Shown piece by piece: positions 61,000 through 64,000 of a stretch of 64,000 nt of DNA (positions are counted from its first letter, which is position 1; each line of letters opens with the position of its first letter). The DNA lies in IMG/VR virus record IMGVR_UViG_3300036670_000258, positions 97,412 to 161,411 of that record; one strand, 5' to 3'. The translations under genes and the position numbers were made by a program. The stretch is from a virus (Duplodnaviria; Heunggongvirae; Uroviricota; Caudoviricetes). The notes below the pieces were generated by a model, which worked only from the letters and a program-made list of their open reading frames with translations, had not been told where the DNA came from and did not search any database.

Positions 61000-61103
61000 T
61001 TTAAGTGTCTTAAAATCATCTAATATATGATTGATTATTATATGTAAATCTAAACAAAAAACTCCGCATTAAAAAATACGGAGTGTTAAATCTTTGTTAA
61101 AGT
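61000..61103 (-). promoter_or_regulatory. terminator-promoter cassette copy at the boundary with the tRNA array
   Basis: Hairpin actccgcatt/aatacggagt. Confidence 0.5.
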
Positions 61104-61180
61104 TGCACGACCCCTAGGAATCGAACCTAGCCGTAGTAGTTTTGGAGACCATACCGGCACCTTGCCTGTGAGAAGTATTT
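61104..61180 (-). ncRNA. tRNA-like element (T-arm GGTTCGATTCC present; no acceptor pairing found)
   Basis: Minus strand ...CTAGGTTCGATTCCTAGGGGTCGTGCA. A 5' partner for the acceptor could not be located by eye. Confidence 0.2.
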
Positions 61181-61251
61181 AAAGAAAATGTCTAAGTTAA
61201 ATTCTACTATATAATGGTTGTCTAAATGTTACTCTGTTTCTTTAATATTAG

Positions 61252-61323
61252 AACCTCTAACGGGAGTCGAACCCATGTTTGATCTTTAGAAGAGATCCGT
61301 TTTTCCAATTAAACTATAGAGGC
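61252..61323 (-). tRNA. tRNA-Arg (anticodon UCU)
   Basis: Minus strand GCCTCTA..TAGTTTAATTGG..GATCT-CTTCTAA-AGATC..ATGGG-TTCGACT-CCCGT-TAGAGGT. Folded by eye. Confidence 0.55.
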
Positions 61324-61560
61324 AAATTCCTGAATTTCGTTTCAGGTGACGTAGATAAATAACCTCTCTGGAAGTTAATACCTAACAGCAACTACGCTGC
61401 TAAGGCAAATTTGTCGTTTGCATTGATATCAATCTCGTCTTATATCCTATATTGCAATCAAAACCAGTCATCCCCTTATATTACTTCTAATTTAGTGGAG
61501 ATGTCGAGAGTCGAACTCGAGTCTTGCAAAACGTCCATAAACTTCAACAATTAATATTTG

Positions 61561-61635
61561 AAATCCCAATAGGACTCGAACCTATATCCTCTGTGTTCGT
61601 AGCACAGCGCTCTTTTCCGATTAAGCTATAGGATT
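61561..61635 (-). tRNA. tRNA-Arg (anticodon ACG)
   Basis: Acceptor AATCCTA/TGGGATT, anticodon arm CTGTG-CTACGAA-CACAG, T-arm ATAGG-TTCGAGT-CCTAT. Confidence 0.55.
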
Positions 61636-61641
61636 ATATAG

Positions 61642-61723
61642 TTCCCCTTGCGAGAGTTGCACTCGCACACCATAAAGGCACCAGATTTTAAGTCTGACAT
61701 GTCTACTGTTCCATCAAAAGGGA
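61642..61723 (-). tRNA. tRNA-Leu (anticodon UAA), type II; atypical T-loop TGCAACT
   Basis: Acceptor TCCCTTT/AAGGGGA, anticodon arm TCAGA-CTTAAAA-TCTGG, long variable arm, T-arm GCGAG-TGCAACT-CTCGC. Confidence 0.45.
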
Positions 61724-62045
61724 GTTTAAAATAGTTTCGGGTCTTTCAGGCATTCTGTGATATTACTAACTCATCTGAATCTCCTAACGCCTTTTCAACA
61801 ATCAGCGAGAATAAAGTAATATAAATACAGCTTCACTACTATTTTTATTTTTAATAGCTAATCCCGTAGATTAACAGCTCAACTTAAGGTATTGAGTTTG
61901 TTTGAAATAAATTCATTACCAAGTCATTCTCCATTTTGGAGATGTCGGGTGTTAGAACGGTACCGCCCCGTCTTCTCAAGATTCACAGTCTTGCGCTTCA
62001 CTAAAAAGCTTCAAACACCATATAGAGATTAGTTACTAATCTTCG

Positions 62046-62114
62046 TTGCGATTACAGGTTACGCTCCTGTCTGAAAATACTTATGAGATATTCTCGATCC
62101 TAGATCAAATCGCA
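62046..62114 (-). tRNA. tRNA with CAU anticodon (Met or Ile2), very small D-arm
   Basis: Acceptor TGCGATT/AATCGCA, anticodon arm AATAT-CTCATAA-GTATT, T-arm ACAGG-AGCGTAA-CCTGT. Confidence 0.4.
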
Positions 62115-62249
62115 ATTTAAGTACCTTGCATTAGATTTGTCTGTTAAGAATTGAACTTAACTAACCAAAAGACAACGTTACTATAATAAAATGGCCATTC
62201 TACATAATATGTTGGTGCACCAATTCTCTAACGCTTTACAGGTACTTAG

Positions 62250-62332
62250 TAGAGAGAAGAGGTTACGATCCCCATCCGAATTCGGACCAACTGTTTAGCA
62301 AACAGTGCTAGAACCATTCTAGTTTACTCTCT
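62250..62332 (-). tRNA. tRNA-Ser (anticodon GCU), type II
   Basis: Acceptor AGAGAGT/TCTCTCT, D CTAG-AATGGTT-CTAG, anticodon arm ACTGT-TTGCTAA-ACAGT, variable stem TCCGAA/TTCGGA, T-arm TGGGG-ATCGTAA-CCTCT. Confidence 0.6.
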
Positions 62333-62339
62333 ATTATTA

Positions 62340-62410
62340 TTCACATGGGAATATTTGAACTTCCATTTCATCGCGATAGGGATGCGTGCTAACCCTTCTA
62401 CTACATGCGA
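62340..62410 (-). tRNA. tRNA, Ile-like paralogue; anticodon loop unresolved
   Basis: Tandem paralogue of the next tRNA (acceptor TCGCATG/CATGTGA, T-arm GGAAG-TTCAAAT-ATTCC). The anticodon stem-loop could not be folded cleanly. Confidence 0.4.
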
Positions 62411-62416
62411 ATTTTG

Positions 62417-62488
62417 TTCACCTGGGAAGAATTGAACTTCCATTTCATCCTTATCAGAGATGTGTGCTAACCATTCTACTACAGGTGA
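62417..62488 (-). tRNA. tRNA-Ile (anticodon GAU)
   Basis: Acceptor TCACCTG/CAGGTGA, anticodon arm CATCT-CTGATAA-GGATG, T-arm GGAAG-TTCAATT-CTTCC. Confidence 0.55.
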
Positions 62489-62494
62489 ATTTTT

Positions 62495-62580
62495 TGTGCC
62501 CAAAGATGGAATCGAACCAACCCTGCTAACTACATGTTTAATCACTTTCCATGCTTTATCTAGAATATCGGGCAGTAGTA
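62495..62580 (-). ncRNA. tRNA-like element, unresolved (T-arm GGTTCGATTCC; acceptor GCCCGAT/TTTGGGC)
   Basis: A 77-nt candidate, but the D and anticodon arms do not fold canonically by eye. Confidence 0.25.
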
Positions 62581-62732
62581 TTAAACCATCGTTAACCCAC
62601 TCGCCACTAAGAACGTTATTAGTGACTATTCGGGCAATTAATTGCTAAATGTGGTTGACTCCCACTGGATGTTTTATTGCGGCCGTCATTTCTTGGCGTC
62701 AGGTCACTTTTTATTTATTTTTAGCAATTTTG

Positions 62733-62811
62733 TTGCAATTGGAGGAATCGAACCTCCACCAGGTATATACTACCAACACGGCTCATGAGACCGATGGCGA
62801 CCACCATTGCA
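62733..62811 (-). tRNA. atypical tRNA: CAU anticodon with a long (type-II-like) variable arm
   Basis: Acceptor TGCAATG/AATTGCA (one mismatch), anticodon arm CGGT-CTCATGA-GCCG, about 20-nt variable region, T-arm GGAGG-TTCGATT-CCTCC. Confidence 0.35.
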
Positions 62812-62942
62812 ATTTAGCGGACCGGGAGAATTTCGAAATCTCGACCCGATGCCTAACAAACATCCGCTCTTCCTCTGAGCTACCGATCCATTATCCGTCT
62901 TTCCGGATTGTCGTTTGACGTTCAGCATTACCTTTAACGTTG

Positions 62943-63015
62943 TGCGGATTACAGGTTACGATCCTGTCTCTCATGGGCTTCAACCATGTGCTTTCACCAG
63001 ATTAGCTTAATCCGC
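62943..63015 (-). tRNA. tRNA-Phe (anticodon GAA)
   Basis: Acceptor GCGGATT/AATCCGC perfect, anticodon arm CATGG-TTGAAGC-CCATG, T-arm ACAGG-ATCGTAA-CCTGT. Confidence 0.65.
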
Positions 63016-63100
63016 AATTACATAATATCAGGGCCTAACGGGTTTAAATTCCAATACGTTGACATTATGTTTTAATCAACTTTAACATGTTAAAGTTTAG

Positions 63101-63181
63101 TGGGACCGGGTGGACTCGAACCACTCCCTTTCGGACGAGATTTACAGTCTCGCTGCCGTATCCGAACGACTTTCCAATCCC
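63101..63181 (-). tRNA. tRNA-Tyr (anticodon GUA), type II
   Basis: Acceptor GGGATTG/CGGTCCC, anticodon arm CGAGA-CTGTAAA-TCTCG, long variable arm, T-loop TTCGAGT. Confidence 0.6.
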
Positions 63182-63186
63182 AATTG

Positions 63187-63276
63187 ATTTTGTGATAGGA
63201 CTTGAACCTATACGAAGACCTTGCGGTAACTTCAACCCTTAGAATGGGTAGTGTATCCCAATTTCACCACACAAAA
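63187..63276 (-). tRNA. type-II tRNA with unusual anticodon loop ATTCTAA (UCU); identity uncertain
   Basis: Acceptor TTTTGTG/CACAAAA, anticodon arm ACCC-ATTCTAA-GGGT, structured 20-nt variable arm (GAAG..ACC..GGT..CTTC), T-arm ATAGG-TTCAAGT-CCTAT. Confidence 0.4.
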
Positions 63277-63375
63277 CAACTATCTTTAAGAAGACTGTAA
63301 TCTCCAAATAAATAGACTAGTAAATGCAATTAACGATATTACAGTACCGTATTTATATACACCCAACTAATTTTG

Positions 63376-63446
63376 TACCTCGTAGTGGAATCGAACCACT
63401 GCCAATTGCATGTAAAACAATTACGCTTCCATTACGCCAACGAGGC
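63376..63446 (-). tRNA. tRNA-Val (anticodon UAC)
   Basis: Acceptor GCCTCGT/ACGAGGT, anticodon arm ATTGT-TTTACAT-GCAAT, T-arm AGTGG-TTCGATT-CCACT. Confidence 0.5.
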
Positions 63447-63665
63447 AAATCTAATTCTATGCTAGCAATATGTAGCTCTATGTATTAGTAACAGTCTCAT
63501 CAGTGTACCCCTGGTAGGTAATGCTCCTACTTCCCCTAGTTAAAAGCTAGGTGCTTCACTTTAAAGCATCAAGGGCGTGTAATTATAAGTACTCTAAGTT
63601 CTTCTCTCTCCTTTAAATATAACTTAGAATGTTTTGGGAGATACTTATAATTAAGATTTTATTTG

Positions 63666-63749
63666 AAGAAGGTGTGGGATTCGAACCCACAACAGTATAA
63701 CCTGTTACTTGTTTTCAAAACAAGCTCCTCATCCACCCGGATACCTTCC
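63666..63749 (-). tRNA. tRNA-Ser (anticodon UGA), type II
   Basis: Acceptor GGAAGGT/ACCTTCT, anticodon arm CTTGT-TTTGAAA-ACAAG, long variable arm, T-arm GTGGG-TTCGAAT-CCCAC. Confidence 0.65.
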
Positions 63750-63769
63750 ATTTAGTATTATCAATATGT

Positions 63770-63860
63770 CAATTAACGTTTGTTTTTAATTATAAGTAAA
63801 TATAATCAAAATCTTTTAATCTTGAAAACTTTAAGTGTTAATTTTTTGTTAAAGTTTTAG
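63770..63860 (-). promoter_or_regulatory. cassette copy inside the tRNA array (between tRNA-Met and tRNA-Ser)
   Basis: taagtaaatataatcaaaatcttttaatcttgaaaactttaagtgttaattttttgttaaagtttt. Confidence 0.4.
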
Positions 63861-63932
63861 TGGTCCCGGCAGGATTCGGACCTGCGACCTTTTCGTTATG
63901 AGCGAACTGCGCTACCGCTGCGCCACGAGACC
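63861..63932 (-). tRNA. tRNA-Met (anticodon CAU)
   Basis: GGTCTCG-TGGCGCAGCGGTAGCGC-..TTCG-CTCATAA-CGAA..GCAGG-TCCGAAT-CCTGC-CGGGACC-A. Confidence 0.65.
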
Positions 63933-64000
63933 ATTTCTTTTTTAGAGTTTTTCTGAGGAGAACTCAATGAAAAGAGAATCATATAAACTGCATCGTTGCG

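Follow-up and report, generated by a model that had tools for sequence, protein, structure and literature searches.

A tRNA array that encloses a two-piece tmRNA gene

The window, a 64,000-nt stretch (positions 97,412 to 161,411) of the IMG/VR virus record IMGVR_UViG_3300036670_000258, carries a continuous run of 19 tRNA or tRNA-like genes on its minus strand (61105-63932) and, within this run, a gene for a transfer-messenger RNA (tmRNA) that is split into two pieces. All positions without a contig name refer to the window. The initial annotation, made by eye from the letters alone, had described a dense minus-strand array of at least 15 tRNAs at this place, and the combined use of ARAGORN and Rfam upheld this description and brought the count to 19 (Table 1). 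Every isoacceptor listed in that annotation was recovered, but Asn-GUU, Lys-UUU, His-GUG, Trp-CCA and the tmRNA had been overlooked.

ARAGORN with default settings called 11 genes (CAU, Ser-UGA, Val-UAC, a 91-nt type-II UCU gene, Tyr-GUA, Phe-GAA, Asn-GUU, Ile-GAU, Leu-UAA, Arg-ACG and Arg-UCU). At the gathering score of the Rfam tRNA family RF00005 (29 bits), 10 genes were detected with 37-64 bits, comprising nine of these 11 and Lys-UUU (63506-63576). The E-value mode of Rfam with permissive filters added His-GUG (61948-62018) at 35.6 bits, above the cut-off, and gave 28.2 bits, below it, to a paralogue of the Ile gene (62340-62410). With lowered thresholds, ARAGORN also picked up Trp-CCA, Ser-GCU, the CAU gene at 62045-62114 and two type-II genes, one with the anticodon CAU and one whose anticodon loop has 6 nt. 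Tyr, type-II UCU, Ser-GCU, the CAU gene at 62045, type-II CAU, the 6-nt-loop gene and Trp were found by ARAGORN only and were not reported by RF00005. A readable anticodon in a 7-nt loop with U33 is present in 16 genes, not in those at 62496-62573 (loop AUUAAA) and 62339-62411 (loop CCUAUCGC). The oddities noticed by eye, namely a CAU tRNA with a long variable arm, a Leu T-loop UGCAACU, a 3-nt D-loop (present in two CAU genes) and a type-II anticodon loop AUUCUAA, are all there, and they are not folding errors, because they are conserved in related phage contigs.

These relatives were collected by exact-pattern scans of IMG/VR. A close relative is the 170-kb record IMGVR_UViG_3300037295_000360 (contiguous chunks L009, L002 and L006, together C360); contigs L004 and L005 are somewhat more distant, and L007, L008 and L010 form a further lineage. 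The window holds part of the array only, since its bases 64000-63995 are the end of another CAU gene that is whole in C360. Upstream of this point, L005 and C360 carry genes for Cys, Gly, Gln, Pro, Leu-UAG, Thr, Glu, Ala and Asp and further CAU genes. Therefore, the operon would comprise about 30 genes that cover all 20 amino acids, with a full one-per-codon-box set in the relatives. Megablast of the array region against GenBank phages gave no match.

Between Arg-ACG and Arg-UCU, the segment 61392-61542 matched the Rfam permuted tmRNA family RF04321 with 54.8 bits (cut-off 47, model positions 1-213). The gene order is permuted: the T-arm and the 3' strand of the acceptor stem (61520-61496) come first and are followed by a 20-nt spacer and then, from 61475, by the acceptor 5' strand and the tag. 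In the acceptor piece, a P2 strand UUGCAA (61529-61524) precedes a canonical T-arm UCGAG-UUCGACU-CUCGA (61520-61504), the 3' strand CAUCUCC (61503-61497) and the discriminator A (61496); CCA is not encoded, and the piece ends A-CUA. The spacer is expected to be removed by tRNA-processing enzymes. The coding piece starts at 61475 with the acceptor 5' strand GGGGAUG, followed by a D-loop analogue ACUGGUUUUGA and the second P2 strand UUGCAA (61457-61452). The 7-bp acceptor stem GGGGAUG/CAUCUCC contains the alanine identity pair G3·U70. The tag frame (61421-61392) reads GCA AAC GAC AAA UUU GCC UUA GCA GCG UAG, which is ANDKFALAA and a stop, with the alanine resume codon GCA and a hydrophobic ALAA-type tail, and three hairpins lie 3' of it up to the next tRNA. 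By eye, the 5' end of the acceptor piece can pair with the sequence just upstream of the resume codon in the window, L005, L016 and L001. L004 and L005 have the gene in the same place (50.2-50.3 bits on RF04321). Blastn of the tmRNA against GenBank phages gave no match, and Rfam reported no glutamine riboswitch near the gene.

The initial annotation had named three T-arm/acceptor mini-helices without the rest of a cloverleaf. The T-arm/acceptor modules are real, but none of them is free-standing: the one at 61497-61560 is the acceptor piece of the tmRNA, and of the other two, treated below, one belongs to a complete tRNA-Trp and one forms an arm within a larger RNA. At a lowered threshold, ARAGORN called a tmRNA with a wrong 3' domain, because it combined the acceptor piece upstream with the T-arm at 61107-61140 in the Trp gene; this join was rejected as an artefact.

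Conservation of the tmRNA, the tag peptide and the ends of the tRNAs

Seven tRNA-like domains were aligned, from this phage, L005, the permuted phage genes of L001, L016 and L058, L011 and one SAR11 chromosomal gene. In this alignment 91% of cells pair, compared with 36-48% when the partner strand is slid, ten pairs show changes on both sides, and G3·U70 is kept in 7/7. Five of the six P2 pairs change on both sides across the seven sequences, with 74% of cells pairing and bulges that shift the register. Between the window and L004/L005, the acceptor pair G4-C69 becomes C4-G69 and P2 changes from UUGCAA/UUGCAA to UUGUAA/UUACGA, with pairing kept in both cases. The tag frame is identical at 30/30 nt in all four array relatives; over the remaining tmRNA, the window shares 81-91% identity with L004/L005.

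A degenerate pattern for ANDKFALAA followed by a stop, scanned against one genome per bacterial species, matched 101 loci, and nearly all of those listed belong to Pelagibacteraceae/SAR11. ARAGORN called a permuted tmRNA in 94 of the 101 loci, 93 of them with exactly the ANDKFALAA tag; in the one left, the reading ran on to a triple stop. The tag frame of the phage differs from 100 of these loci at 7-8 of 30 nt, and all differences are synonymous; the remaining locus, L064, shows five differences and lies in a Bacillota metagenome-assembled genome (MAG) with a standard one-piece tmRNA. The G+C content is 29.4% over 718 kb of SAR11 loci and 31.4% for the window. Because the tag peptide is identical and the G+C content agrees, the host is most likely a member of SAR11 (Pelagibacteraceae). 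A Bacteroidota host had been raised by a Cellulophaga-like CCA enzyme and by a T-arm match to phage tmRNAs with tags ending in EYALAA, and it was set aside when the tag search gave SAR11. The synonymous differences in the tag, together with the other differences between the genes, argue that the phage tmRNA is not a fresh copy of the host ssrA. The phage tmRNA thus seems to have kept, or arrived at, exactly the degradation tag of its host, and tag identity despite synonymous divergence would imply selection on the tag.

Other IMG/VR contigs with permuted tmRNA genes (L001, L016/L270, L058 and L011/L028/L040/L047) have the same T-arm and acceptor and quite different tags, for example GDVYQLGGVQLRAVA and GKTFVTDYVRLSA, each followed by a stop, and the 5' end GGGGAUGACUGGUUUUGAUU is common to L001, L016 and this phage. 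A metagenome scan with the tmRNA 5' end gave 120 loci of which one was permuted (L270, similar to L016) and was of no help. The permuted genes with differing tags suggest that two-piece tmRNAs form a lineage among phages, in which the tag is specific to the host. It is conceivable, though improbable, that the compact tmRNA of this phage stems from an old phage lineage rather than from a recent capture from a host, with a tag that was held on, or converged to, the signal of the host.

A 3' CCA is encoded by 0/16 genes read and is not encoded by the tmRNA; encoded CCA is optional in bacteria and phages. A C stands directly after the called discriminator in 15 of the 16 genes and is followed by A or U (CUA, CAA, CAC), therefore the first C of CCA may be template-encoded and the CA not. 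The link that the initial annotation drew between the array and a CCA-adding enzyme encoded at 43785-44531 makes sense, because no gene checked encodes CCA. The product of this open reading frame (ORF) matches Pfam PolyA_pol (PF01743, 72.9 bits) and PolyA_pol_RNAbd (PF12627, 25.9 bits). Class II enzymes are recognized by the head motifs GGxxRD, DxD and RRD and the neck motif (E/D)DxxR, and an alignment to PDB 9kma places GGCIRD, DID, RRDFTINAL and DDPLRILRALRF (neck, DDPLR) at these sites. The protein has 248 amino acids, compared with 390-580 for solved homologues, and thus lacks the full-length architecture with body and tail domains; the best of its NCBIfam scores, 102 bits, is far below the equivalog cut-off of 439, and PcnB and A-adding models match as well. 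Phage homologues are 42-48% identical and equally short (about 700-740 nt). We consider the protein a putative class II tRNA nucleotidyltransferase of the CCA-adding type, within a family whose sequence does not separate addition of CCA, CC, A or poly(A).

Unusual tRNAs, further structured RNAs and neighbouring genes

Table 1. Features of the array and the nucleotidyltransferase gene, in window coordinates (-ps, lowered ARAGORN threshold)
Feature	Position	Strand	Evidence and remarks
tRNA CAU	63860..63932	-	ARAGORN default; Rfam 64.4 bits; trailer A-CUA, no CCA
tRNA-Ser(UGA), type II	63665..63749	-	ARAGORN default; Rfam 37 bits
tRNA-Lys(UUU)	63505..63576	-	Rfam 37.5 bits; ARAGORN -ps80; 98.6-100% conserved in relatives; non-canonical T-loop AGCAUUA, D-loop UAAAGUG
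tRNA-Val(UAC)	63375..63446	-	ARAGORN; Rfam 60.6 bits
Type-II tRNA, anticodon UCU, U73	63186..63276	-	ARAGORN default (Arg-tct, 91 nt); swapped cassette
tRNA-Tyr(GUA), type II	63100..63181	-	ARAGORN default
tRNA-Phe(GAA), T-loop AUCGUAA	62942..63015	-	ARAGORN; Rfam 53.3 bits
tRNA-Asn(GUU)	62817..62889	-	ARAGORN; Rfam 47.9 bits
Type-II tRNA-like, CAU, G37, A73	62732..62812	-	ARAGORN -ps80; only 25.2 bits on Rfam tRNA-Sec model; 3-nt D-loop GUGG-UCG-CCAU; identical in C360, replaced in L004/L005
Conserved spacer, about 160 nt, candidate structured RNA	62574..62731	-	RNAalifold, three sequences only
Type-II-like, 6-nt anticodon loop AUUAAA, A73	62496..62573	-	ARAGORN -ps80 only; 90-99% conserved in relatives
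tRNA-Ile(GAU)	62416..62488	-	ARAGORN; Rfam 58.5 bits; 100% conserved
Ile(GAU) paralogue	62339..62411	-	Rfam 28.2 bits here, 31.8 in C360; ARAGORN -ps80; alignment
tRNA-Ser(GCU), type II, T-loop AUCGUAA	62249..62332	-	ARAGORN -ps80; 94-100% conserved
Predicted structured RNA, about 130 nt	62117..62247	-	RNAalifold: 41 pairs, 7 with changes on both sides
tRNA CAU	62045..62114	-	ARAGORN -ps80; 98.6-100% identical in relatives; 3-nt D-loop GAUC-UAG-GAUC, T-loop AGCGUAA
tRNA-His(GUG)	61948..62018	-	Rfam 35.6 bits; ARAGORN default calls His in L004, L005; G-1:C73 pair encoded; T-loop GGCGGUA
tRNA-Leu(UAA), type II, T-loop UGCAACU	61641..61723	-	ARAGORN; Rfam 44.7 bits
tRNA-Arg(ACG)	61560..61635	-	ARAGORN; Rfam 60.5 bits
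tmRNA acceptor piece	61496..61542	-	Rfam RF04321; covariation of T-stem, acceptor stem and P2
tmRNA intervening sequence, 20 nt	61476..61495	-	Sequence and Rfam alignment
tmRNA coding piece	61324..61475	-	Rfam alignment; ARAGORN -ps80 tag call; 3' end inferred
tRNA-Arg(UCU)	61251..61323	-	ARAGORN; Rfam 63.7 bits
tRNA-Trp(CCA)	61105..61177	-	ARAGORN -ps75; two internal acceptor-stem mismatches, small D-loop
Terminator-like hairpin	61061..61084	-	Terminator scan: 10-bp stem, then TTTTTGTTTA T-run; closes the array
Putative class II tRNA nucleotidyltransferase, 248 amino acids, head and neck only	43785..44531	-	Pfam, PDB and NCBIfam homologues

The first CAU gene of the window (63860..63932) would encode an elongator Met or an Ile2 tRNA and not an initiator, because its acceptor stem begins with G1-C72. 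Several genes carry T-loops of the types A-G/U-C-G-U-A/U-A, AGCAUUA or GGCGGUA instead of UUCRANY, namely Lys, Phe, Ser-GCU, one CAU gene and His, and the same class is found in Glu, Asp and Val genes of the relatives. Where the T-loop has G at position 2, the D-loop has AG rather than GG, and Val switches both loops: the window combines D-loop AAUGGAA with T-loop UUCGAUU, L005 combines AAUAGAA with AGCGUAA. Elbow variants in L005 lie at 3741-3812, 3996-4067 and 5617-5688. The same T-loop types occur in SAR11 tmRNA genes. The non-canonical T-loops therefore appear to be a tRNA elbow variant typical of the lineage and not damage.

Four genes are harder to explain, that is the type-II UCU gene, the type-II CAU gene with G37, the gene with the 6-nt loop, for which decoding is doubtful, and the Ile-like paralogue. 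When the three odd type-II genes were compared with Leu, Ser and Tyr genes, identity was about 60% to all of them and uninformative on amino-acid identity. The Ile-like paralogue is 83.6% identical to the Ile-GAU copy in relatives, and its aberrant anticodon loop differs between close relatives (CCUGUGC in L005). In the further lineage, L007 has tRNAs of about 74 nt with the Leu anticodons UAA and UAG (9950-10023 and 11045-11118) and no long variable arm; a tRNA-Leu without a long variable arm is unusual for the bacterial type. The array with these short Leu tRNAs also has a type-II gene with the anticodon UCU.

Recombination within the array is indicated by a cassette at 63186-63375 (spacer and type-II UCU gene), because it is 96-100% identical to the otherwise more distant L007, L008 and L010, while C360, L004 and L005 have a different tRNA-like gene in its place. 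The UCU gene itself is 95.6-99% identical to its counterparts in that lineage, with UCC for UCU in L010. At the corresponding position (window 63186-63276), L004 (12204-12274) and L005 (about 5786-5857) differ sharply in the anticodon arm, GGTGAGTCAGGCC versus GGC-TTCGACGCC; elsewhere they are about 99% identical. L005 also has an insertion of about 750 nt between Asn and the tRNA-like gene that follows (about 6240-6985), with a cysteine-rich ORF, that is absent from the window and looks like a homing-endonuclease-type element. A 126-nt stretch between His and Leu-UAA (61724-61849) is shared by the window and C360 but not by L004 and L005; immediately upstream of it, the conserved part has two hairpins, CUCAA...UUGAG and UAAUC...GAUUA.

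The second mini-helix of the initial annotation, 61104-61180, is a complete tRNA-Trp(CCA) gene. Its homologue in L007 folds into a clean cloverleaf with the anticodon loop CUCCAAA and is called Trp(CCA) by ARAGORN at -ps90, with 29.9 bits in Rfam. By eye, the differences between the window and L007 are compensating in the D-stem (GGCA/UGCC to GGCU/AGCC) and in the T-stem (CUAGG/CCUAG to CAAGG/CCUUG), acceptor pair 1 changes from A-U to G-C, and the two internal acceptor mismatches are kept. We regard the gene as a full tRNA with an unusual acceptor stem that completes the amino-acid set. A second tmRNA-like domain or a small ORF (MVSKTTTARFDS) had been considered for 61104-61180 and was rejected, since the L007 homologue folds as tRNA-Trp. 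A viral scan for further homologues of the Trp gene returned already known contigs only.

The third mini-helix, 62136-62215, is the last hairpin, with a T-loop-like UUCAAUU, of an RNA of about 130 nt that is predicted to be closed by AAGUACC/GGUACUU and GCGUUAG/CUAAUGC and to contain three hairpins. In this model 95% of cells are paired versus 30-43% with the partner slid, a figure that comes from four close sequences and a structure derived from the same sequences. Its minus strand matched no Rfam family at E<=10, and a metagenome scan for it gave zero hits. YrlA (bacterial Y RNA) had been considered as its identity and was rejected, with no Rfam Y-RNA match at E<=10 and no TROVE domain among the 50 ORFs scanned. 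The conserved spacer at 62574..62731 is predicted to form hairpins and a helix between distant strands, AUUGCUAAA/UUUAGCAAU; 5 of its 35 pairs vary on both sides, and Rfam gave no match at E<=1. The suggestion that unassigned array sequence holds further non-coding RNAs is thus borne out by the two-piece tmRNA and by these RNAs, of which at least one, and probably two, are structured according to the folding models.

Directly after the end of the array lies an HNH endonuclease gene (60460-60993); a search for contigs that encode this protein returned nothing. A motif AACTTTAACA, followed after 1-16 nt (5-6 in most copies) by TTAACA, stands 3' of several tRNA genes and adjoins terminator hairpins, with copies at 63856-63835, 63098-63068 and 61104-61083 of the window, at the end of L006 and at about 1120-1150 of L016. 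A promoter scan rated two TTAACA copies as -35-like, with 10 and 9 matches of 12, and the motif may be a phage promoter or a processing signal. Auxiliary genes elsewhere in the window (ORFs 1144-2418, 26608-27720, 31822-32913, 45312-45791, 37478-37849, 37830-38765 and 50731-51576) include matches to serine hydroxymethyltransferase (536 bits), thymidylate synthase, M42 aminopeptidase, a nucleoside 2-deoxyribosyltransferase-like protein, a SET-domain protein, a weak Hint/intein-like match and SPFH/Band 7. A search for loci related to a 230-aa neighbour gave one weak, unrelated locus only, and tblastn with the collagen-like fibre protein was uninformative owing to the low complexity of the query.

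A probable translation supply for a phage of SAR11 and its known counterparts

Taken together, the region is best explained as the far end, seen from the promoter, of a long tRNA operon in a large phage that probably infects SAR11, equipped with a permuted tmRNA and with its own CCA-adding enzyme, which would serve as a private translation supply; we put the probability of this reading as a whole at about 0.8. SAR11 is the most abundant bacterial group of the surface ocean and has a very small translational capacity. In such a host, RNase P of the cell, together with a 3' endonuclease or exonuclease, would cut one or a few long transcripts wherever a tRNA-shaped module occurs. Cutting of the tmRNA would release the acceptor and coding pieces, held together by the acceptor stem and P2. 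Because no gene encodes CCA, it must be added after transcription, either by the short class II nucleotidyltransferase of the phage or by the enzyme of the host. The tmRNA would be charged with alanine through G3·U70 and, with host SmpB, would rescue ribosomes stalled on broken mRNAs and add the host-identical tag ANDKFALAA. The whole set would then act as a translation supply of the phage's own. This account of processing, charging and function is read from the genes.

Several points weigh against this explanation. No two-piece tmRNA family specific to a lineage (alpha RF01849, beta RF01850, cyano RF01851) was matched at its gathering score; the best match of the clan was beta_tmRNA with 35 bits against a cut-off of 84, over model positions 77-166 only, and the alpha and cyano models scored lower still, since only the best hit of a clan is reported. 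ARAGORN with default settings does not call the tmRNA, minimum free energy folding of it gives hairpins only and thus demonstrates no pseudoknot, and its coding piece is very short, about 150 nt, with a 3' end that is only inferred. A tblastn search of the window with an E. coli sequence, which is a weak test, did not detect SmpB. The relatives are close to one another, which makes most of the conservation statistics weak, and the assignment of the host draws on the tag peptide and G+C content only, the same tag being present in a Bacillota MAG.

Counter-defence or repair overlaps with this explanation and does not exclude it. The tRNAs would replace host tRNAs lost to anticodon nucleases or to a shut-off that the phage induces, the CCA-adding enzyme and repair-type enzymes nearby would mend damaged 3' ends, and the tRNA-like genes whose anticodon loops are aberrant or swapped would be decoys. 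The region of the nucleotidyltransferase also encodes RNA-repair-type domains, namely HAD_SAK_2 (41780-42367 and 46291-46785), cREC_REC, a cyclic-phosphate processing receiver (58810-59217), Metallophos, that is calcineurin-like phosphoesterases (57788-58513 and 53694-54359), and an RNase T-like exonuclease (40234-40917), and the anticodon loop is among the parts in which several tRNA-like genes vary from one close relative to another. However, these domain names are annotations and not tests, the 50 ORFs scanned yielded neither an RNA ligase nor a polynucleotide kinase, the ligase at 36084-37388 being of the DNA-ligase type, and the Ile-like gene varies between relatives along its whole length. 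SAR11 is not known to have an anticodon nuclease. As the primary reason for the array, this explanation is possible and distinctly less probable than a translation supply.

The initial annotation had favoured codon compensation, in which tRNAs for A/U-ending codons that are rare in the host would match the usage of an AT-rich phage. The ORFs of the window do prefer such codons (AGA, 62% of Arg; UUA, 56% of Leu; AUA, 42% of Ile; GC3 0.205), and the array supplies Arg-UCU and Leu-UAA together with several CAU genes, of which one could read AUA. Nevertheless, the SAR11 loci have the same composition as the window, and because of this compensation is unlikely to be the reason for the array. Nor does the array consist of specialists for A/U-ending codons; the tRNA set is, in the relatives, a complete one-per-box complement for 20 amino acids and not a choice of tRNAs that read rare codons. 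A general boost, or a replacement, of the minimal tRNA pool of the host would fit better.

A similarly improbable idea is that part of the array consists of tRNA mimics rather than ordinary decoding tRNAs; the old phage lineage of the tmRNA is a separate idea of the same standing. Such mimics would either give codons a new meaning in the infected cell or serve to decoy or regulate host proteins that bind tRNA. Candidates could be type-II tRNAs with anticodons foreign to that type (the UCU gene, with UCC in a 96%-identical relative, and the CAU gene with G37), genes with 6- or 8-nt anticodon loops and the RNAs of about 130 and 160 nt with their tRNA-like arms. The least credible alternative, that the tmRNA match and the odd tRNA-like genes are functionless pseudogenes decaying in a recombining array, would account for the mosaic of cassettes swapped between lineages, for homing-endonuclease-type ORFs beside or inside the array and for tRNA-like genes below detection thresholds, but it fits poorly with a tmRNA whose acceptor stem and P2 are kept by compensatory changes and whose tag is kept across 7-8 synonymous differences from the host and invariant among relatives, and with low-scoring CAU, Ser-GCU, His, Lys and Trp genes that are 94-100% conserved and needed to complete the amino-acid set.

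Under the preferred reading of a translation supply in SAR11, a full tRNA set, a CCA-adding enzyme of its own and a host-tagged tmRNA would show how far the translational self-sufficiency of a virus can go. The tag peptide of the tmRNA alone pointed to the host, which offers a simple handle for host prediction in uncultured phage contigs. The array also provides natural elbow variants, in which T-loops with A54...U58 and G55, of types that recur in the host tmRNA, are paired with an AG and not a GG D-loop, and two conserved, predicted structured RNAs without a family.

The RNA at 62117-62247 presumably resembles YrlA in its long closing stem formed from the two ends and in its tRNA-like T-arm module, although membership is not supported; unlike YrlA, it has no Rfam match at E<=10 and is accompanied by no Ro/TROVE protein among the ORFs scanned. 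The nucleotidyltransferase is like those of the Cellulophaga phages phi17:2 and phi4:1, the Microbacterium phages Cece and Big4 and the Synechococcus phages B3 and B23, which are class II proteins of about 240-250 amino acids with 42-48% identity, encoded by phages of 117-245 kb. These phages, which carry many tRNAs, showed no similarity to the present one beyond that protein, and the array described here differs in including a two-piece tmRNA. One-piece phage tmRNAs (IMG/VR L013, L015, L022, L030 and others) stand beside tRNA genes as well, and their T-arm and acceptor 3' strand fit the same 25-nt search pattern, in which 23 of 25 bases are fixed. They are 365-400 nt in length with long tags that end in EYALAA or DYAVAA, whereas the gene in the window is permuted and far shorter.

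With the SAR11 chromosomal tmRNA, the phage gene shares the permuted order, G3·U70, P2 and the identical ANDKFALAA tag. In contrast to the phage gene, the host gene encodes CCA, and has a T-loop GGCAGUA, GGCGGUA or AGCAUUA and the acceptor strand GGGGGUG; its coding piece is longer and includes a 3' element rich in G+C. The phage gene, which lacks CCA, shows the canonical T-loop UUCGACU and 7-8 synonymous differences in the tag. Two-piece tmRNA genes have already been described in SAR11 and OM43 marine myophages, namely Melnitz, Mosig and pelagimyophage metagenome-assembled viral genomes (MAVGs) (PMC9004378), and the family RF04321 dates from 2025 (PMC11915505). Like the present gene, those of the SAR11 and OM43 myophages are permuted ssrA genes with the order acceptor piece, spacer and coding piece, belong to phages of streamlined marine hosts and are thought to be processed by tRNA enzymes (PMC9004378). 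The gene in the window differs from them in lying between two tRNA-Arg genes, within the 19-gene stretch of an array of about 30 genes, in having no glutamine riboswitch detectable by Rfam and no nucleotide similarity to GenBank phages, and in escaping the default call of ARAGORN. Arrays of tRNA genes, tmRNAs of one or two pieces and CCA-adding enzymes are all documented in phages, and these categories stay unchanged; the present phage has such equipment in unusually complete shape. Beyond the routine are its tRNA-like and structured RNAs of no assigned function, its variant elbows, the compactness of its tmRNA and a tag identical to that of the host despite synonymous divergence.

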